Shown one piece after another: positions 6,388 through 64,000 of a DNA stretch of 64,000 bases (position 1 is the first letter of the stretch; every line of letters starts with the position of its first letter). This DNA is from Escherichia coli (GTDB lineage Bacteria; Pseudomonadota; Gammaproteobacteria; Enterobacterales; Enterobacteriaceae), in NCBI RefSeq assembly GCF_024502345.1, contig NZ_JALDNN010000001.1. The stretch is one strand, 5' to 3'. The translations under genes were made by a program, and so were the position numbers. Under the pieces are notes generated by a model that saw only the letters and a program-made list of their open reading frames with translations, was not told where the DNA came from and did not search any database.

Positions 6388-7305
6388 ATGCCACTCTCAA
6401 AGGTCTGGGCAGGTTCACTGGTTTTGTTGGCAGCCGTGAGCCTGCCGCTGCACGCGGCTTCCCCCGTTAAAGTCGGTTCAAAAATCGATACTGAAGGCGC
6501 GCTGCTCGGCAATATCATTTTGCAGGTACTGGAAAGCCACGGCGTACCGACGGTCAATAAAGTGCAACTCGGAACGACTCCTGTGGTGCGCGGGGCGATT
6601 ACTTCCGGTGAACTGGATATCTATCCGGAATATACCGGCAATGGCGCGTTTTTCTTTAAAGATGAAAACGATGCAGCGTGGAAAAACGCGCAGCAAGGTT
6701 ACGAGAAAGTCAAAAAACTTGATGCAGAGCAAAACAAGTTAATCTGGCTGACGCCCGCACCTGCAAATAACACCTGGACCATCGCCGTGCGTCAGGATGT
6801 GGCAGAGAAAAACAAACTCACTTCGCTTGCTGACCTGAGTCGTTATCTGAAAGAGGGCGGCACCTTCAAACTGGCAGCCTCGGCAGAGTTTATCGAACGC
6901 GCCGATGCCTTACCCGCGTTTGAAAAAGCCTATGGCTTTAAGCTCGGTCAGGATCAGTTGCTGTCACTGGCTGGTGGCGACACGGCGGTGACGATTAAAG
7001 CCGCTGCCCAGCAAACTTCTGGCGTTAATGCCGCAATGGCTTACGGCACTGACGGTCCGGTCGCGGCGCTGGGGCTGCAAACCTTAAGCGATCCGCAAGG
7101 CGTGCAACCTATCTACGCGCCTGCACCAGTGGTGCGTGAGTCAGTGCTGAAAGAGTATCCGCAAATGGCACAGTGGCTACAGCCAGTCTTCGCCAGCCTC
7201 GATGCAAAAACATTGCAGCAACTGAATGCCAGCATTGCAGTGGAAGGACTGGATGCCAAAAAAGTGGCTGCCGACTACCTGAAACAAAAAGGGTGGGCGA
7301 AGTAA
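6388..7305 (+). CDS. osmF: glycine betaine-binding periplasmic protein of YehZYXW ABC transporter
   Basis: 305 aa with signal peptide; first gene of four-gene ABC transporter cluster. Confidence 0.85.
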   Translation: MPLSKVWAGSLVLLAAVSLPLHAASPVKVGSKIDTEGALLGNIILQVLESHGVPTVNKVQLGTTPVVRGAITSGELDIYPEYTGNGAFFFKDENDAAWKNAQQGYEKVKKLDAEQNKLIWLTPAPANNTWTIAVRQDVAEKNKLTSLADLSRYLKEGGTFKLAASAEFIERADALPAFEKAYGFKLGQDQLLSLAGGDTAVTIKAAAQQTSGVNAAMAYGTDGPVAALGLQTLSDPQGVQPIYAPAPVVRESVLKEYPQMAQWLQPVFASLDAKTLQQLNASIAVEGLDAKKVAADYLKQKGWAK

Positions 7306-21385: not shown

Positions 21386-21471
21386 AATAAAAAAACCTGC
21401 TGGTGAGGCAGGTTCTTTTATTTACTATTTTCAGGCCTAACACCACAGCCTGTGCAACATCGTGTTCCAAC
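21386..21471 (-). ncRNA. candidate Orz-like antitoxin sRNA (copy 1)
   Basis: minus-strand promoter (-35 TTGCAA 21501..21506, 17-bp spacer, -10 TATAAT 21478..21483), intrinsic terminator at 21386..21413; 5' end complementary to zor 5'UTR 21618..21638. Confidence 0.55.
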
Positions 21472-21995: not shown

Positions 21996-22079
21996 AATAA
22001 AAAAACCTGCTGGTGAGGCAGGTTCTTTTATTTACTACAGTGACGCTAACTTGCTGATTGTGCAACATTTCGTACCAAC
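21996..22079 (-). ncRNA. candidate Orz-like antitoxin sRNA (copy 2)
   Basis: same promoter/terminator architecture as copy 1 (-35 22109..22114, -10 22086..22091, hairpin 22006..22022). Confidence 0.55.
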
Positions 22080-25111: not shown

Positions 25112-28100
25112 TTATTCAAACAGGGCTTCAATATCGTTAATTAGCTCGCTGGCGGTGATGGCATCGAGTACGGAGAGCTGCGCTTCCTGTGTTGAATTAC
25201 TCCCCCAGCCATAGCTTTCCGCTTTGCCTTCCCATAGCCACAGCTTGCTTAAGAGCTGCTCAGCGCTAAGTTCGGCTGGTGACATACCCACTGCAAAGCC
25301 TTCATCGATTTCCATGATTAACGACCAGCGGCCCAGAGGTTTGATCATCCAGCCGATCCAGCCTCCATCCTGTGGTTCGCCCTTTATCCAGCCTTTATTC
25401 GCCAGCCCCATTACCCGACCGCTCGGGCATTTTCTGCTTGCCCAGCGGGTCAGTTCGCTGGCATTGCGCTCGGTTTCTGTCAGGGCGTAACTGTTACGGT
25501 CGAGCTGGCGGAACGGCGGTAGCAGTTCGTAGTCGGCAAAAAGCTGCCCAAATGCGGCGGCATCCGTCGGTGATATTTCCAGAACGTGAGGAATACCAAC
25601 AGAGATATCGCCTTCCGGCAGGGTGAAAAGATCATCGTCAGCGGTGCTGTAGCTGTTATCTTCCGCTACGCGAAAGCAAGCCAGTAGCTGGTTTTCGGCG
25701 CTATAAACACCCCAAATCAGACGGCGGGTTAAGTGGCGAACCAACGGATGCTCAACCAGGAAGAGCTGGAAGTTTTCCGGCGACCAGCGGCGGCGCAGGC
25801 ACATGGCGGATTCCAGCCTTGCTACCTGCTGGGCGGCGACGGTACGCGCATCTTTTTTCAGCAATTTGTAGCGGTTAACCGCATCGTTCGCCTGTGATTC
25901 ATCATCGCTTTTATTGGGTTTAGGTAAGTCTTTCAGGCGGCTGCCGGAAACATCACGCACAAACGGTTTTAAGGTTTCATCAAAGCTGACGGTGAACTGG
26001 CGTGGGCCAAAATCCAGCAGCAACGAACCGTTATCATCCAGACCGAGATCCGGTGCTAACCGATCTTCAAGCTCCGCCACTGTCAGTTCGCGACTTTCGG
26101 CAATGTCGGCAATTTTCTCTTTCGCCCGCTCCTGTAATGCTTTGAATTTCAGTTTCTGGGCAATGCCGTTAAGCTGCATCAGGGCGATATCACTACCGAT
26201 AGCGGCGAGAATATCCAACCCAACGGTGGCGCGTTTATGCTGAGATTCGCCAGGCCAGGCGCGGATTAATGGCGTCAGTTTGCGGGCGGTGTCATCGTTG
26301 CCGAGAACACCTAACGCAATGAACGCCCAGCTTTCTTTCGATGGCGCGCCCGCAGTCAGCCAGGCGGTAAACAGATCCCAGGCAAATTCAGCCAGTGAGT
26401 CGGCGGTACAGGCATCTTTCACCTGCAATAATCCCGGATACAGAGCCTCTTCCTGAGGGAAGCGGAGCATTTCACCGAGGTGCTGGAGTGCGCTATCGGG
26501 CAGTGATTGGGCGTTTGCTTTTAATACCGGGCGCGTCCAGAGCGATGGCTGATAAAAGGCCGGAAGAGTGGGGATTTTTGTCGGGTGATTATCTAAGGGA
26601 TCGAGCGCAAGCAGAGCGTTCACCGCGTCTGTTACTTCCGGCTGGTTATAACGCCGGGCGATTTCTTGCAGTAATGGCTGATGACCATTTTCGGTAAGCA
26701 TACGCAAGGCAGCGCGGGCGTTATCCTGTGCTTCACCGGCTTTGCCGAGCGCCGCAGGCAGCAGGCCGGTAAGGGCATGTTCCGGGTATTTCAGCAGCCA
26801 GGTGCGGGCGTCTTGTCGTAGGGTTTTGAGTTTGTTGAAGGCGCGGGCGACGGCAGGAGCTAGCTCACTCGCTGCGAAGTAATTCGTGATGGGCAAGGCT
26901 TCCTGCGGATAGCGTGTAATTGAGTTAACTAAACCAGGTAAACCTTTGAGTCCAAAATGTAACATGGCGTATTCGGTATCGGTATGTGGAGATAGAGTAA
27001 GGGCATTCCATGCTTTTACTGCTTTCTCCAGCGGCAATGTTGTCAAAATCCCCAAATGCCAATAATGCCCGGTAGGTGAATGAAACACCTTAAATTCACT
27101 TATTAAGGTTGAATAATCTTCATTTAGCCATGCCTCAACTACCGCTTCGGGAGCTTTAATATATGTACCAGCGATCCGTCGTTGAAAACCCATCCTTGCC
27201 AACAGGTTGGTAGTACTTTCTTCATGGCTAACCGTGATGTGTTGTGAATACCAGATATATTTCGCCAAAAGTTGATTACTGATTTCTTCTGTCATATAAC
27301 AGATTGGCTCAATGCCTAATGGCGCTAAATCCAGCACCGGAATCGGCGATTTTTTCTTTTTCGAAAGCCATGGTGGGGAGACTACTATGGCAGGCAGTAG
27401 ATCGGCGCAGGCATGGTTTGAGGGCTGTGTCAGTTGTTGCTGGCATGATTTCAGTACGGCAACTGCGGGTGTCGAGAGCCAGGGAAGGACCTGTTCTGCC
27501 AGTGCTGGTTGTGAGATAAGCATTGTCATTAGCATAATGCGCCAACTGTTCTCTTCTTTTTGCCCAAGAAGTTCCGTCAGTGCCGCCATTGCTGCATGTG
27601 GGAACGCAGCAATGGCTTTCGTCATCCGATCGTGACAGCGTTTAGTTTGCCCGGCTACACGTATAAGCAGTGTCAATGCGACCGGATGATTGATATGACG
27701 CAACACATCGGCGCAGTAGTCACTTGCGGCATAGGGAGCAAATCGGGGCAGGGCTGCAACACCTTGCTCCTGTAATACGGTGGCTGACCATATCGCACCA
27801 CAATAGTAATCATCAAAAATGGCATATGGCTCGTGATATTTTTCTAATGAGGCAAGAATGTGCTCATCAGTCGCCACTATTTTTAACCACTCAAGCGAGG
27901 GTAATTTTTTTTGCCCCAGTAGACGCTGGGCAATTTCATGTGCAATTTCTGGTTTTTCGGGTAATAACAAAGCAATTAATGGTTGCCGCCATTCTGGAAT
28001 ATGTGGAATTGCGGCAATAAGTTTTTGTGCACATTTTTGCCAGAGAGACTCTTCCGCCAGTGATAAATGTTTACGTAGGCGTAATTCAAATCTGGAATAT

Positions 28101-57567: not shown

Positions 57568-57672
57568 AACCGCGGGCCAGCGTGATGCTGGCCCGGTATT
57601 GTGCAAAACAGATCATTCACCAATGGTCCCCCTTCGTTTACACTAGCCACAATTGAATATGGGTAAATGACG

Positions 57673-58446
57673 ATGAATTCATTCGAGCGAAGGAATAAGA
57701 TCATCCAATTAGTGAATGAACAGGGAACCGTGCTTGTTCAGGATCTGGCGGGAGTATTTGCTGCCTCGGAAGCGACAATCCGTGCCGATTTGCGCTTTCT
57801 CGAACAAAAAGGCGTGGTTACGCGCTTTCATGGCGGTGCGGCGAAAATAATGTCCGGTAATAGTGAAACCGAGACCCAGGAAGTCGGGTTTAAAGAGCGA
57901 TTTCAGCTCGCCAGCGCGCCAAAAAACAGAATAGCGCAGGCGGCAGTCAAAATGATCCACGAAGGGATGACCGTTATTCTCGACAGCGGAAGTACGACAA
58001 TGCTTATCGCCGAAGGATTAATGACCGCCAAAAATATCACGGTGATTACCAACAGTCTCCCGGCAGCGTTTGCCCTTTCCGAAAATAAAGACATTACTCT
58101 GGTCGTCTGTGGTGGCACGGTCCGCCATAAAACGCGCTCGATGCATGGTTCCATTGCCGAGCGTTCATTGCAGGATATTAATGCCGATTTAATGTTTGTC
58201 GGTGCTGATGGTATTGATGCGGTTAATGGTATTACGACCTTTAATGAAGGTTATTCGATTAGCGGTGCGATGGTCACCGCCGCTAATAAAGTGATTGCCG
58301 TTCTCGATTCATCGAAATTTAATCGTCGCGGTTTTAATCAGGTACTGCCAATCGAAAAAATTGACATTATTATTACCGATGATGCTGTGTCAGAGGTGGA
58401 TAAACTGGCATTGCAGAAGACACGGGTAAAATTAATTACGGTGTAG
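57673..58446 (+). CDS. gatR: DeoR-family repressor of gat operon, uninterrupted
   Basis: DeoR HTH + sugar-binding domain; ~257 aa single ORF. Confidence 0.85.
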   Translation: MNSFERRNKIIQLVNEQGTVLVQDLAGVFAASEATIRADLRFLEQKGVVTRFHGGAAKIMSGNSETETQEVGFKERFQLASAPKNRIAQAAVKMIHEGMTVILDSGSTTMLIAEGLMTAKNITVITNSLPAAFALSENKDITLVVCGGTVRHKTRSMHGSIAERSLQDINADLMFVGADGIDAVNGITTFNEGYSISGAMVTAANKVIAVLDSSKFNRRGFNQVLPIEKIDIIITDDAVSEVDKLALQKTRVKLITV

Positions 58447-58527: not shown

Positions 58528-59427
58528 TTAACGCAATAATGGGCAATCTGGTGGTAATCGACAACGCAACGCCGCCGGAAGTATTTCAATATGGAAGTTT
58601 TGCCCACTCAACGGTTCGCCATCAAGATTAAAAGTGATTTCGTGTGGGGCTTGTATATCAAACCACGACGAAGCGCCTTCGATAATATTCGGGTTATCTT
58701 CGTCAGATTTTAAGGTTGATACGAGAGCTGGAAGAATTTCATCGCCGGTAAAAATGCGCAGTTGCAGCAAGCCATCGTTAATTAACGCGTTCGGACACAA
58801 TTGCTGACCGCCACCGGCCTGACGCCCGTTACCAATACCAATGACCAGGGCGTCACCTTGCCAGTGAAAGTTTTCACCGTGGATTTCACAACGGTCCGGT
58901 TGCAGAGTATCCATGCGCATTAAGCCATGAATGATATAAGAGACGCCACCCAGCGCGGCTTTTAATTTTTCCGGCGTTTCTGTGGTAATACGCGTCCCAA
59001 ATCCGCCTGTCGCCATATTAATAAAACAGGTTTGTTTGTTGACCTGCGCCATATCTATCGCAATGGCGTTACCGGCAATTGCCAGTTTCAGCGCCTTATC
59101 CAGTGCCTCAGGAATCCCTACACTGGTGGCAAAATCATTGGCGGTTCCTAATGGCAAAATTCCCAGCGCGGGTATGTTATCCCCCTCACACTGAATCAAC
59201 GCCGTAGAAACTTCATTAATGGTGCCATCGCCACCACCGGCAATCACCGTTGCGACGCCCAACTTCCGGGCCTCCTCTACATATCGTGCGGCATCGCCTT
59301 TCTCCCAGGTGACCCGCACATGGATCGTCATTCCTTCCTCACGCAACAGCATAATTGCTTCGCGCAATGGTAAATTGTCAGTACTTTTGCCATTAAGAAT
59401 CAGTAAGCTGGCGGGAAATTCTGCCAT
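58528..59427 (-). CDS. yegS: lipid kinase YegS (DAGK_cat family)
   Basis: 299 aa; GGDGT motif. Confidence 0.9.
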
Positions 59428-59840
59428 GATCGTATGTGCCTTTATGATTGGTCTGTAGATAGTGTAGAGCAGAAAAGAAAAGGTGGAGTCAGAACAGGAT
59501 GAAAGTCGGAGGATAAAAAGTCAGTTCAAGTATGGGGGATTCAGTGGTTACCACCAGGAGCTTGCAATGGGAACAGCGAATATTAACGGTAGCCACCGAT
59601 AAATTTCAAAAAAGAGCATATGCCTAATATTCAACCAAACAGTGGCATCTTAAATATACTATTCCAAATATATTAAAGTCCCATGGAGTTACCTGGAAAG
59701 GGCCTTCATGTCTGTAATTCCTACTTATGTAGGAAATGTTGTACAGAACATTTATTATAATCCTATTCAAATATAATAATCAGCCATTATTATATTTAAA
59801 CACTAGAGAGTGTCGTTGGTATTTAATGGGGAAAGGTGAG

Positions 59841-60158
59841 ATGAAAAAGATAGCTGCTATATCATTAATTAGTATTTTTCTTATGTCTGGTTGTGCTGTG
59901 CATAATGATGAGACAAGTATCGGTAAATTTGGTCTTGCATATAAAAGTAATATTCAGCGTAAACTCGATAACCAATACTACACCGAAGCCGAAGCTTCTT
60001 TAGCCAGGGGCAGAATATCTGGTGCAGAAAATATAGTAAAAAATGATGCAGCCCATTTCTGTGTTACTCAGGGCAAAAAAATGCAGATAGTTGACCTGAA
60101 GACAGAAGGTGCAGGATTACATGGCGTCGCTCGTCTGACATTCAAATGTGGAGAGTGA
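59841..60158 (+). CDS. yegR: small lipoprotein YegR
   Basis: ORF trimmed to MKKIAAISLISIFLMSGC lipobox (105 aa). Confidence 0.75.
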   Translation: MKKIAAISLISIFLMSGCAVHNDETSIGKFGLAYKSNIQRKLDNQYYTEAEASLARGRISGAENIVKNDAAHFCVTQGKKMQIVDLKTEGAGLHGVARLTFKCGE

Positions 60159-60316
60159 GAATATTTTTTGGTAAGCGTCAAACATGCGCGTTCTGGTTGT
60201 GCTTAGCCGGAACCTGTGCGAGCACGATGCCGTTACGTGAAAGGCATCGTGCTATGAAGGGAGATTCTATCGATGTGGTCAATGGAAGACGGTGGCCAGG
60301 GATAGGGCTTATGCAT

Positions 60317-60343
60317 AAAAAATAAGCCCGTGTAAGGGAGATT
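60317..60343. other. P2 attachment core AAAAAATAAGCCCGTGTAAGGGAGATT (attL)
   Basis: exact 27-mer match to the P2 att core as I recall it; located 80 bp from int 3' end. Confidence 0.85.
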
Positions 60344-60422
60344 TAGGGTGTCACCAGTAGGGGCTTTCAACGGTACAATGCGGGTTTGAGCGGCATAAAT
60401 TACCACTGAAAGCCCTTAAACG

Positions 60423-61436
60423 TTACTCTACTGTGGACACTGTGTGGACACTCTCGGCCTCAGTACCACCTCTTAGCGGATTAAGAGAAATGGCGTCCTG
60501 AAGGTACTCTGGCGCAAAATGAGCGTAAACCATAGTTTGCTCAATCCGCGTGTGACCTAGTATCCGTTGTAGCGTGATAATACTTCCTCCATTAATCATG
60601 AAATGAGTGGCAAAGCTGTGCCTTAGTGCATGTGTGGCTTGCCCCATTGGCAAATCCGGTTTTATTGCTTTCATTGTTCGTCTGAAGCGAGGGTAATCAG
60701 CATCAGGGAATAAAAAACCTCGTTTGTTATCCGCGATCATTTTGGCAACAGCCTCTGAGATCGGGACGGTGCGTGGTTTGTTTGTTTTCGTTTTAACAAA
60801 CGTGACGCGGTTATGGATGATATTTTCTGCTTTCAAACGAGCTGCTTCTCCCCAACGCGCTCCTGTACTCAGGCAAAGAATCGCAATCTTTTTATTGTCG
60901 CCGTCAAGTGCTGCAAGCAGTAAGGCAATTTCTTCCTGTGTGAGATAGCCTGTTTCTGGTTTTTCCTCCTTAAGCCTCTTTGTCCCTCTGATAGGGTGCT
61001 CACCAAAGAATAACTCCGCTTCAATCAGGGCTGTAAACATGCCGCTAATACATGTTAAATCACGATTGATACTCGAAGGTTTAATACCCTGACTTCTTCG
61101 GGTGGCGCAGTACTGGCTGATAAGGGATTTCGTGATTTGAAATGCGCATGGGTCATTCGTTATTTTTGTGAAGATTTCAATTTTTCCAAGATTAGATTTC
61201 CCATGCTCTTCGTGTTTACCCTTTAAATCCCACCAGATCTGTGTCAGTTCCGACAGACGTCGTTTGTCTGTTGGTTTTGATAGCCATTCTTTATTGTGGT
61301 GGTTGTACAACGTGTATTTTTCGAAAGCGACAGCTTCGCTTTTCTTATCAAATTTCCTACGGATGCGTTTTCCGTTACGTCCAGTAGGGCGGATGTCCAC
61401 TTCATATCGACCATCATCGAGTTTTTTGATTGCCAT
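60423..61436 (-). CDS. int: P2-type tyrosine integrase
   Basis: 337 aa; C-terminal HxxR...Y catalytic motifs (HALRHSFATHF...YAHF). Confidence 0.95.
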   Translation of the reverse strand: MAIKKLDDGRYEVDIRPTGRNGKRIRRKFDKKSEAVAFEKYTLYNHHNKEWLSKPTDKRRLSELTQIWWDLKGKHEEHGKSNLGKIEIFTKITNDPCAFQITKSLISQYCATRRSQGIKPSSINRDLTCISGMFTALIEAELFFGEHPIRGTKRLKEEKPETGYLTQEEIALLLAALDGDNKKIAILCLSTGARWGEAARLKAENIIHNRVTFVKTKTNKPRTVPISEAVAKMIADNKRGFLFPDADYPRFRRTMKAIKPDLPMGQATHALRHSFATHFMINGGSIITLQRILGHTRIEQTMVYAHFAPEYLQDAISLNPLRGGTEAESVHTVSTVE

Positions 61437-61551
61437 CAGAAAACCCTCCGAGTGGTACTTTTTTTTGCTACTACTAATCGCTTTTTTCGTGGTGGCTGAA
61501 ATTTAGCCACCAATAGTAGGCACTTGTGATGAATATATTCACGATAAATTG

Positions 61552-61851
61552 TTAACCAGTCTTTTGACCGGAGTGGGGCGACGTTGTTTCGTTTTGCCCA
61601 AAGTGTGCGAGAGCGGGCGCAATTTGCCCGGCTTCTGGAGCTACCTGATCAGTCATGAACCACAAAGTATATTTAGTAAATCTAGGATGTTGTAAGACCT
61701 TCATTATGGCTTCAACTCCAGCGTTTTTTGACCGGCTCTCATAGCTCGAAAGTGAGCTGTAGGCTACACCAGTTAATTCACTGAATTCTTTACGGTTTAA
61801 CCTTTCAGATTCACGGATTAGCTTCAACTTCTCCGAAACGTCTATTGACAT
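61552..61851 (-). CDS. C: P2-type immunity repressor C
   Basis: 99 aa from MSIDVSEKLKLIRESE; HTH; divergent from cox. Confidence 0.85.
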   Translation of the reverse strand: MSIDVSEKLKLIRESERLNRKEFSELTGVAYSSLSSYESRSKNAGVEAIMKVLQHPRFTKYTLWFMTDQVAPEAGQIAPALAHFGQNETTSPHSGQKTG

Positions 61852-61972
61852 AATTACTCCGATTGCGTAATTTCTTGCTGATAGTGTGAAATGTTGTGCT
61901 TCTGGAGTTATCCTTTTAGGCAATAATTAGCCATTAGGAGCCATTAGAAGCACTAAGGGAGAATCGTAGCAG

Positions 61973-62248
61973 ATGAATAGACAGCTTGTAAGCGTGACTG
62001 ATGCCGTGCCTTATCAGGAGTTTGCAAAACTCATTGGTAAAACTCCAAGAGCTGTAAGGGGCATGATTGAGAAAGGGAAATTACCAGTTATTGAGATTAC
62101 TGACCCTCAGTCAGTATCGGGGCGTGCTGGTGAATATTGGGTATACCTTCCGGCATGGAATAACGGACTAAAACTGGCTTATGAAAGCCGTCCTAAAGAG
62201 ATTCGTGACGGCTGGTTGATGTGGTTAGGTCTCGGTGAACCACGTTAA
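61973..62248 (+). CDS. cox: Cox excisionase/early repressor
   Basis: 91 aa, divergent from C. Confidence 0.85.
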   Translation: MNRQLVSVTDAVPYQEFAKLIGKTPRAVRGMIEKGKLPVIEITDPQSVSGRAGEYWVYLPAWNNGLKLAYESRPKEIRDGWLMWLGLGEPR

Positions 62249-62258
62249 GGAGAACCGT

Positions 62259-62429
62259 ATGAATGAGCCGCGTTGTATTGCTCAGTTATTGCGTAACGAA
62301 AGCCCCAGGGCGATTGACTTCACCATCACCCACGGGAAGGGACGCAAGGGAATCATTATCCGCACCAAAAAACAGAGTCCGTTAAAGAAGGCTCTGACCT
62401 TTCTGAAAAGCCGGAGGGTCTGGAAATGA
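62259..62429 (+). CDS. P2 orf78-like small protein
   Basis: 56 aa from MNEPRCIAQ; position between cox and B. Confidence 0.6.
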   Translation: MNEPRCIAQLLRNESPRAIDFTITHGKGRKGIIIRTKKQSPLKKALTFLKSRRVWK

Positions 62430-62926
62430 CAGTGATGACGCTCAATCTCGTTGAAAAACAGCCAGCAGCTATGCGCCGGATAATTGGTAAGCATCTTGCC
62501 GTCCCTCGCTGGCAGGAGACATGTGATTATTATAATCAGATGATGGAACGTGAACGGCTAACGGTTTGCTTCCATGCGCAGTTAAAACAACGTCACGCAA
62601 CGATGCGTTTCGAAGAAATGAACGATGTCGAACGTGAACGGCTGGTTTGTGCAATTGATGAATTGCGTGGGGCATTCTCAAAACGCCGTCAGGTCGGTGC
62701 AAGTGAGTATGCATATATTAGTTTTTTAACAGTCAGTCAGCGTCGTACTTTATTTATGCATGCCGGATTGACTGAAAAAGAATTCAACCAGCCATACTGG
62801 CGAATTAATGAAGAATCATGTTACTGGCGTGATGCTTTATTCCGTGCATTACGTGAATTATTCAGCCTGTTTGAGTATGCACCGACAATTCTGACGTCGG
62901 TAAAACCAGAGCAATATCTGCATTAA
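62426..62926 (+). CDS. B: P2 replication protein B (helicase loader)
   Basis: 166 aa in P2 order. Confidence 0.8.
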   Translation: MTVMTLNLVEKQPAAMRRIIGKHLAVPRWQETCDYYNQMMERERLTVCFHAQLKQRHATMRFEEMNDVERERLVCAIDELRGAFSKRRQVGASEYAYISFLTVSQRRTLFMHAGLTEKEFNQPYWRINEESCYWRDALFRALRELFSLFEYAPTILTSVKPEQYLH

Positions 62927-62989
62927 GTAATTAACCAGAGTTTTTAACGCACTTAATTGTGCGGGGCTTCTTTTTGCCTGGAGAAAGTC

Positions 62990-63214
62990 ATGCATACAGT
63001 TTCTGAAAATCAGTGCGGTAAATACGCATTACTGCTGCAACAGGCCAGAACCGAAGCACAGGCCGACGCAGCGACGCGCTTTTCTTCTCATCTTGACGCC
63101 ATGATTCGCCACATCACAAAGGCGGAGTTATCCCGCGTGGAGATAGTCGAGCTGCTCAGTCAGGAGTCGGAAAAATTTCACAATATCGGATTGTCTCGCG
63201 GGGAGGTACTTTGA
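62990..63214 (+). CDS. P2 orf80-like
   Basis: small ORF in P2 early operon; start uncertain. Confidence 0.55.
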
Positions 63215-63513
63215 TGTCCTGTTCTCATTCAGTTGTATTACTGAATAACGCCTTAAAAATCGCCGTTATGGAAAATGGTGATTTGTCTCTTATTCAACTT
63301 GGTCTTGATAAAGAAAAACGCGACATCACTGAATCTGTTATCGCGATTTATCAGAATGAATTAAACCTCCTGTCTGATGTGGTCAATTTACTTGTTAAAC
63401 GCGCTGTATTCCACAAGCAAATTTCCTCAGTGGATGAACTGACAAAATTAACGACAGAACTTGCCTGTTATTGCGCTGATGTATCCAGGAAACTTAACGA
63501 TAAAAGGAGCTGA
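63211..63513 (+). CDS. P2 orf81-like
   Basis: 100 aa, overlapping start/stop with neighbours. Confidence 0.6.
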
Positions 63514-63515
63514 TA

Positions 63516-63740
63516 ATGCCGGACAACGTAGATTTTATTCAGGAACAACAGGCTGAATTACTGGAGCGCCAGATTAACGCGGCAAGGGGTAAACATTGCG
63601 GTGTTTCTGCGCTGGTTTGCGAAGAGTGTGATGCGCCAATACCTGCTGCCCGTCGTGCGGCTTATCCGTCAGCCACGCGTTGTGTTTCCTGTCAGTCAGT
63701 CTTTGAAGCAAAAAACAAACATTACCGGAGAACGGCATGA
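63516..63740 (+). CDS. TraR/DksA-family C4 zinc-finger protein (P2 orf82-like)
   Basis: CEECDAPIP...CVSC four-Cys motif; 74 aa. Confidence 0.75.
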   Translation: MPDNVDFIQEQQAELLERQINAARGKHCGVSALVCEECDAPIPAARRAAYPSATRCVSCQSVFEAKNKHYRRTA

Positions 63741-64000
63741 GTATTCGTATTGAAATTGGCGAACGTTATGTCGTTACCAGTGACAGCTTTCAGTTTATTC
63801 TCCACGAGAAAAAGAGAGCGGAAAGCGGTAAAAACGCCGGTCAGGAATGGCTGGCGGTGGTTGGTTATTACCCGAAATTAAGCCAGCTCGTTTCCGGCCT
63901 GATGCATCACGATATTCTGACCGGAAGCGCAAAATCTTTTGCTGATTTAAACGCGCAGGTTGAGCAACTCAGCAAGCGTTGTTCTGAGGCTTTTGGCTCA
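63737..64000 (+). CDS. P2 orf83-like (3' end beyond window)
   Basis: ORF starting MSIRIEIGERYVV, runs to window edge. Confidence 0.55.
   Translation, partial: MSIRIEIGERYVVTSDSFQFILHEKKRAESGKNAGQEWLAVVGYYPKLSQLVSGLMHHDILTGSAKSFADLNAQVEQLSKRCSEAFGS

Follow-up and report, generated by a model that had tools for sequence, protein, structure and literature searches.

Several features of P2-like prophages in Escherichia coli are already well described. About 30% of ECOR strains carry such prophages, seven immunity classes have been defined (PMC1904263; PMC3448106), and members of an immunity group share at least 95% identity in the repressor C (PMC3448106). A single chromosomal location, the 'cyaR RNA' site, was listed in the genome paper of E. 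coli W as being occupied by Wphi2 in strain W, ogr-D' in K-12, and P2*B in strain B (PMC3032704). Phage P2 Hy dis received its immunity from a defective prophage in E. coli B (PMC11126057 table S2). The Hy dis operator is made up of 8-bp half-sites with a spacing of 26 bp (2.5 turns) that bracket the -35 element of the early promoter Pe, with a natural mismatch in O2 (PMC1904268; PMC2995052). P2 prophages also have a defense hotspot between gpA and gpQ, for which 1,650 arrangements were found in 18,150 loci (Rousset et al. 2022, PMC9122126). We analyzed a stretch of 64,000 nucleotides (nt) of E. coli DNA (contig NZ_JALDNN010000001.1 of assembly GCF_024502345.1), hereafter the window. We read positions 60317-64000, at its end, as attL, the left attachment (att) site, together with the integration, immunity, and early replication block of a prophage of the P2 type (Peduovirus) that entered the 3' end of cyaR by the action of P2 Int. 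We give this reading a probability of about 95%.

Junction of host and prophage DNA in cyaR

The left boundary of the prophage is defined by an att core. The window has a single copy of the 27-mer AAAAAATAAGCCCGTGTAAGGGAGATT (60317-60343, plus strand), and this copy is identical to the annotated core of the P2 attP site (NC_001895 24356-24382). No other copy with three or fewer mismatches was found in the window or in 100 dinucleotide-preserving shuffles. We compared four core-anchored sequences position by position. In the 175 nt to the left of the core (60142-60316), the window matches the empty site of E. coli MLI023K1 at 175 positions and P2 at only 46. In the 120 nt to the right, it matches P2 attP at 120 positions and the empty site at only 21. 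The junction is a textbook attL, with a bacterial (B) arm of host intergenic DNA (60159-60316), the core, and a P' arm (60344-60463). Because the left arm is that of the empty site and the right arm is that of P2, 60159-60316 is host DNA and the element starts at 60317. Over 36000-60316, its host part, the window shares 99.9% identity with MLI023K1 and two sister assemblies, and in MLI023K1 yegQ directly follows yegR, the arrangement of an empty site. On the host side, the gene closest to the junction is yegR (59841-60158, plus strand), an open reading frame (ORF) for a lipoprotein of 105 amino acids (aa), supported by the yegR annotation and Pfam family PF27694 (YegR) in relatives. When P2 annotations are transferred by offset (window = P2 + 35,961), a Cox-binding region is predicted at 60360-60433 and an Int arm-type site at 60431-60457. 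Both are inside the 120 bases that are identical to P2.

The core is also part of a small RNA (sRNA) gene. In K-12, its reverse complement corresponds to nt 61-87 of cyaR, the final 27 nt of this 87-nt gene (positions 7175-7201 of K-12 locus L003, in which cyaR is at 7115-7201). On the basis of this match, attB is the 3' half of the cyaR terminator, between yegR and yegQ/trhP, and is P2's known chromosomal site. We take it to be locI, the preferred site of P2 in E. coli C. The phage carries the same 27 nt, and integration should therefore regenerate an intact cyaR at attR and leave only an orphan 27-nt copy at attL, as is observed in the window. In the related prophage of strain PEC1011, the second core, at attR, is indeed within a cyaR sequence that matches at 87 of 87 nt on the opposite strand and adjoins ogr and yegQ (Rfam CyaR, 100.7 bits). 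Regeneration of cyaR at attR, which for the window's prophage would be located beyond the window, can be likened to the restoration of tRNA genes by tRNA-targeting phages. A search of window positions 59400-64000 against Rfam (E ≤ 1) yielded no match, as the 27-nt piece of cyaR is too short. The orphan core at attL, located behind int, does not re-form the CyaR terminator: it lacks the 5' side of the stem, and an alternative hairpin forms with the host flank (GGGCUUAU...AUAAGCCC). The idea of an sRNA in the 3' untranslated region of int was therefore dropped.

These comparisons bear on an earlier, sequence-only reading of the window. Its identification of the P2 27-bp att core at 60317-60343 is correct, and the core is unique in the window. 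Its span of 60159-64000 for the prophage holds from 60317 onward, whereas 60159-60316 belong to the host. It placed the integration next to yegR, which is accurate with regard to position, but missed that attB is the end of the cyaR terminator. It further stated that K-12 has only a P2 remnant (ogrK, yegZ) at this locus, and these genes are annotated there as 'cryptic prophage PR-X'.

PR-X shares its site with the prophage in the window. It consists of ogrK and the D' pseudogene yegZ and is located between cyaR and yegR, with cyaR abutting the ogr end and the annotation of PR-X beginning inside cyaR. On the attL side, K-12 has kept 22 of the 27 nt of the core (19 contiguous), fused to D', and the region from int through most of D is deleted. 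Barreiro and Haggard-Ljungquist are reported to have described this K-12 remnant in 1992.

Other variations were observed around the site. In some lysogens, a 1-nt change is limited to the attL core and the attR core is exact, as in GCA_042761665.1 (C to T, equivalent to window 60329) and REL606 (AATATCCC..., L017 32428-32454). Just past attR in relatives, a ParD/ParE toxin-antitoxin pair is present between yegQ and yegP (L001 37427-38021, L005 5754-6348, L030 7082-7676); K-12 has none between these genes. In the window, an 8-bp inverted repeat at 60305-60329 crosses the attB boundary, with GGGCTTAT in the host flank and ATAAGCCC in the core. Viewed on the cyaR strand, the end of the CyaR terminator can pair with downstream host sequence. 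The intergenic DNA between yegR and the core (60170-60316, plus strand) has a strong predicted fold (-58.7 kcal/mol, z = -3.9) with two long hairpins, including GAGCACGATGCC...GGCATCGTGCT. The same DNA is identical in the empty site, and the fold is therefore a host feature, possibly the terminator region of yegR or an unannotated RNA.

Early genes and immunity type

The genes that follow attL have the layout and order of P2: a face-to-face C/Cox switch and then orf78, B, and orf80-83. PHROGs placed all nine ORFs, from int to orf83, in the expected P2 families. As is typical of a P2-type int, the gene (60423-61436, minus strand) adjoins att and is transcribed toward it. The encoded tyrosine integrase is identical to P2 Int across all 337 aa (phrog_1 integrase, E 6.5e-86), and the 10 nt differences between the two genes are all in third codon positions (10 synonymous, 0 non-synonymous). 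The immunity repressor C (61552-61851, minus strand; 99 aa; phrog_147 transcriptional regulator) is 64.6% identical to P2 C. The cox gene (61973-62248, plus strand), for an excisionase and Pc repressor of 91 aa (phrog_272 Cox-like excisionase), encodes a protein 83.5% identical to P2 Cox. In both C and Cox, differences from P2 are clustered in the N-terminal DNA-binding halves.

The remaining genes are all on the plus strand. Orf78 (62259-62429) is identical to its P2 counterpart (56 of 56 aa), and the product of B (62426-62926), which functions in replication (lagging-strand synthesis), is 98.8% identical to P2 gpB. A terminator-like hairpin after B (62948-62963, plus strand), identified in a terminator scan, is the counterpart of the putative P2 terminator at 26980-27007. 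Orf80 (DUF2732; 62990-63214), Orf81 (DUF5405; 63214-63513), and Orf82 (DksA/TraR-like zinc finger, phrog_54; 63516-63740) are 98.6%, 87.9%, and 97.3% identical to those of P2, respectively. The last gene, orf83 (DUF5405; 63737-64000), is truncated by the window end: 87 of its 91 codons are present, and they match P2 at 86 of 87 aa (98.9%). Window position 64000 aligns to P2 28032 and gene A of P2 starts at 28034; the window thus stops 2 nt short of A. The sequence-only reading had listed these genes in P2 order and had the window end before gene A; ORFs, comparison to P2, and PHROGs all agree with it.

Relative to phage P2 (NC_001895 / AF063097), the prophage shares its site and gene order, an identical att core, P' arm, Int, and Orf78, and 97-99% identity in B, Orf80, Orf82, and Orf83. 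It differs in Orf81 and, more so, in C and Cox, where the immunity cassette has been swapped. Outside of the cassette, the early region is 95% identical to P2 in nucleotides. A closer match is phage vB_EcoM-720R8 (ON470606), which aligns to window positions 60300-64000 over 100% of the length at 98.1% identity (1.9% nt divergence). It is also the only one of 50,697 phage records with a C protein 100% identical to that of the window. The visible 3.7 kb is the left end of an ordinary P2-family prophage, with nothing new and of a kind already known.

The swapped cassette distinguishes this prophage from P2. The blastn alignment to P2 breaks at 61681 and resumes at 61995, and the 313 bp between (61682-61994), which lack blastn homology to P2, cover the N-terminal half of C, Pe, Pc, and the operators, and the first codons of cox. 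In P2, the operator is composed of two copies of GTTTAGAT that are 22 bp apart and flank the -10 of Pe; this half-site is absent from the 121-bp spacer between C and cox in the window. A candidate C operator of different sequence is located at 61829-61862 (plus strand), with half-sites TTCTCCGA (61829-61836) and TACTCCGA (61855-61862) that are 26 bp apart, centre to centre. These form the sole pair of 8-mers with 26-bp spacing and no more than one mismatch in 61800-61900. A putative Pe on the plus strand, with a -35 of TTGACA (61845-61850), a 17-nt gap, and a -10 of TAATTT (61868-61873), is between and beside the candidate half-sites, such that they flank the -35. A consensus promoter scan picked up neither Pe nor Pc; we placed Pe via the alignment to P2 and the match to TTGACA-17-TAATTT. 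The geometry fits the published description of the P2 Hy dis operator, and primer A3-44, used to amplify the Hy dis operator (PMC1904268), matches window 61801-61816 exactly. Near the start of cox, AGCCATTAG is directly repeated in tandem with 10-bp spacing (61929-61947, plus strand), in a stretch that aligns with the Pc/Cox-box region of P2. Cox boxes are spaced 10-11 bp (PMC3936717), and the repeats are probably Cox boxes over Pc.

The low identity of C to that of P2, the missing GTTTAGAT, and the replaced 313-bp cassette together predict that the prophage is heteroimmune to P2. Conversely, C (99 of 99 aa), Cox (91 of 91 aa), and the spacer (121 of 121 bp) are identical to those of the prophage in REL606, and C is also 100% identical to that of the prophage in PEC1011. 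Judged by sequence, the immunity is of the characterized P2 Hy dis / E. coli B type, as assigned via the E. coli B prophage, a proxy for the P2 Hy dis reference AJ306907, and via published descriptions. The prophage of E. coli B, P2*B (REL606 2100282-2122454), additionally has the same insertion site and orientation. It differs in being deleted to 22.1 kb core to core, in the 1-nt change in its attL core, and in two residues of Int. A lysogen with the prophage in the window is predicted to have immunity that covers phages of the Hy dis type but neither P2 nor WPhi. The Cox protein of Hy dis complements a P2 cox mutant (PMC3936717), consistent with the function of a Hy dis-type Cox at the att region here, which is identical to that of P2.

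If the prophage functions like P2, Int, with IHF, would have recombined attP and attB inside the 27-bp core. The repressor C, expressed with int from the leftward promoter Pc, would bind the two direct 8-bp half-sites that flank the -35 of Pe, and its binding would silence cox-orf78-B-orf80-83-A. Cox, in turn, would repress Pc and direct excision by binding Cox boxes in the P' arm. C proteins of the P2 type are not known to contain a domain that RecA can cleave, so induction of the prophage by SOS is not expected.

Occupancy of the site, cargo, and alternative readings

The junction is common. A query of yegS-yegR-core-int...orf83 matched in one place over at least 80% of its length in 736 of 5,426 complete E. 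coli genomes (13.6%), which bears out the suggestion in the sequence-only reading that the locus is a recurrent site of P2-family integration. The best match among complete RefSeq E. coli genomes is 98.8%, and a query centred on the junction recovered 748 genomes. In sampled rows of the ranking for the remaining genomes, most match only 94 nt of host flank and core, which is the pattern of an empty site, and K-12-like strains match 85 nt, followed by D'. The Hy dis-type cassette is present in 348 of the 5,426 genomes, with 337 records of at least 99% identity.

Relatives of the prophage are found in different host backgrounds, and the host lineage of the window has different prophages. All 10 retrieved contigs that encode an identical Orf81 protein have it at the same chromosomal site. 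The two best of these differ by 3 of 3,684 nt in the phage part, in host backgrounds that are 96.9-98.6% identical. Among species-representative genomes, a 60-mer around a window-specific single-nucleotide polymorphism at 63070 was found only in an unrelated P2-like contig, of Escherichia sp. MOD1-EC7003. Five contigs of the host lineage of the window (L018, L019, L021, L024, and L025) have flanks with only 8-15 mismatches in 10.8 kb. In these contigs, the cyaR site is either empty or has one of three other P2-type prophages: one with Hy dis-type immunity and an ABC-three-component cargo, one with Hy dis-type immunity and a reverse-transcriptase cargo, and one with P2 immunity and an Exo_endo_phos gene. 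The prophage in the window is different from each of these. This shows a rapid turnover at the cyaR site within one host lineage with 99.9%-identical flanks.

Relatives also indicate what can follow orf83. Gene A, cos, the late operons, ogr, and the second core are present in H10 and PEC1011. The prophage of H10 is 32,062 bp core to core with an intact gene set, and its second core adjoins cyaR-yegQ. That of PEC1011 is 33,321 bp with an IS66 insertion sequence (IS) inside gpO. The other two relatives measured from core to core are smaller: in E. coli B REL606 a deletion has left 22,146 bp, and in GCA_033843585.1 the prophage is a remnant of 9,219 bp in which an IS fragment joins the hotspot to gene D. 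In the prophage of the window, the gpA-gpQ (tin/old) hotspot is expected to start ∼2.3 kb past the window end. Relatives have variable cargo at this same locus. In the two that differ by 3 of 3,684 nt, the cargo is a gene for a 783-aa AAA_13 protein in one versus a gene, on the other strand, for a 735-aa AAA_13/AAA_23 protein in the other. Elsewhere among relatives the cargo includes HEPN, SIR2, SIR2 with DUF87 (HerA-like), DUF4238, and a SacI-like nuclease, in keeping with the variable hotspot that Rousset et al. reported (PMC9122126). Near-identical early regions thus carry different cargo, and the early region is no guide to the cargo of this prophage. We consider it improbable that, beyond the window, the gpA-gpQ or Z/fun hotspot has an uncharacterized system against phages or other such cargo.

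Nothing contradicts the reading of 60317-64000 as the left end of a P2-type prophage, but it has limits. The window ends before gene A, and any attR, ogr, late genes, and cos would be located beyond 64000. All functions of the prophage are taken over from P2 biology. The immunity class depends on the E. coli B proxy, and the Cox of the window has E33 but T24-P25 (plain numbering), versus T25 and E33 in the Cox of Hy dis (PMC3936717). The alternative that deserves most attention is that the DNA beyond 64000 is a defective remnant, shaped by an internal deletion or disruption by an IS, and that only the left end is P2-like. There are precedents at this site, as just one of the four relatives measured core to core is intact (H10), one has the IS66 in gpO, and two are deleted, and K-12 retains only ogrK and D'. 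However, all nine visible genes are intact, changes in int relative to P2 are confined to synonymous ones, and in 12 of 13 other occupied loci with 10-kb flanks the prophage runs normally into A, the hotspot, and Q/P/O. A defective remnant is possible but doubtful.

The other alternatives are far less probable. Identity to P2 in Int, Orf78, the att core, and the P' arm could suggest a prophage of P2 proper with P2 immunity, for instance in a laboratory P2 lysogen. This is refuted by a C identity of 64.6%, far from the at least 95% within immunity groups (PMC3448106), by the half-site missing from the C-cox spacer, and by a non-homologous 313-bp cassette within an early region that is otherwise 95% identical. 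A relative of the WPhi or 186 (Eganvirus) type would have in common with the window the overall early-gene families of Peduoviridae (DUF2732, DksA-like, and DUF5405), but identity to WPhi is only 49.6% in Int, 48.5% in C, and 40.4% in Cox. Phage 186, characterized by CI (∼190 aa), Apl, and CII and by integration in tRNA-Ile, fits no better: Int identity is 37%, C and Cox have no significant match to CI and Apl, respectively, and the window has no cII homologue. Membership in either type is rejected on the comparison of Int, C/CI, and Cox/Apl. The sequence-only reading had proposed to compare C and cox with P2, 186, and WPhi, and the outcome is a prophage predicted to be heteroimmune to P2, of neither WPhi nor 186 type, and of the Hy dis / E. 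coli B type. It is extremely improbable that the junction stems from a chimeric assembly or a chance match, given an identical junction type in 736 complete genomes, breakpoints that are exactly at the edges of the core relative to both the empty site and attP, and a core never seen in shuffles. We thus retain the reading of a P2-type prophage inserted at cyaR.

As a discovery, the prophage has little weight; it is one more instance of a well-studied family of temperate phages at a textbook site, with a type of immunity that has been characterized biochemically since 2001-2007. Its value is for annotation. The exact boundary of the prophage is at 60317 and the functional copy of cyaR is expected at its far end. 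Immunity is predicted to be against P2 Hy dis-type phages and not P2, and the location of variable defense cargo is indicated.

Other features of the window

Several features were observed in the host part of the window. Relative to MLI023K1, the fimbrial usher gene yehB is interrupted by a 1,057-bp element of the IS5 family (36319-37375). The element has terminal inverted repeats and a 9-bp target duplication (GGTGCGAGC) at 36310-36318 and 37376-37384. Its transposase is encoded by an ORF at 36351-37319 (NCBIfam transpos_IS5_2, 357 bits), and in size and duplication length the element resembles IS903. Two Rfam OrzO-P antitoxin RNAs on the minus strand, at 21389-21464 (99.9 bits) and 21999-22072 (88.8 bits), are separated by ∼600 bp, an arrangement suggestive of type I toxin-antitoxin loci (zor-orz) in tandem. 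The gatR gene, split by IS3E in K-12 MG1655, is intact in the window as an ORF of 259 aa (57667-58446). Additional matches at Rfam gathering thresholds are a Peptidase-S11 RNA motif (873-953), a TPP riboswitch upstream of thiM (43981-44077), and naRNA4 (CssrE; 51923-51993).

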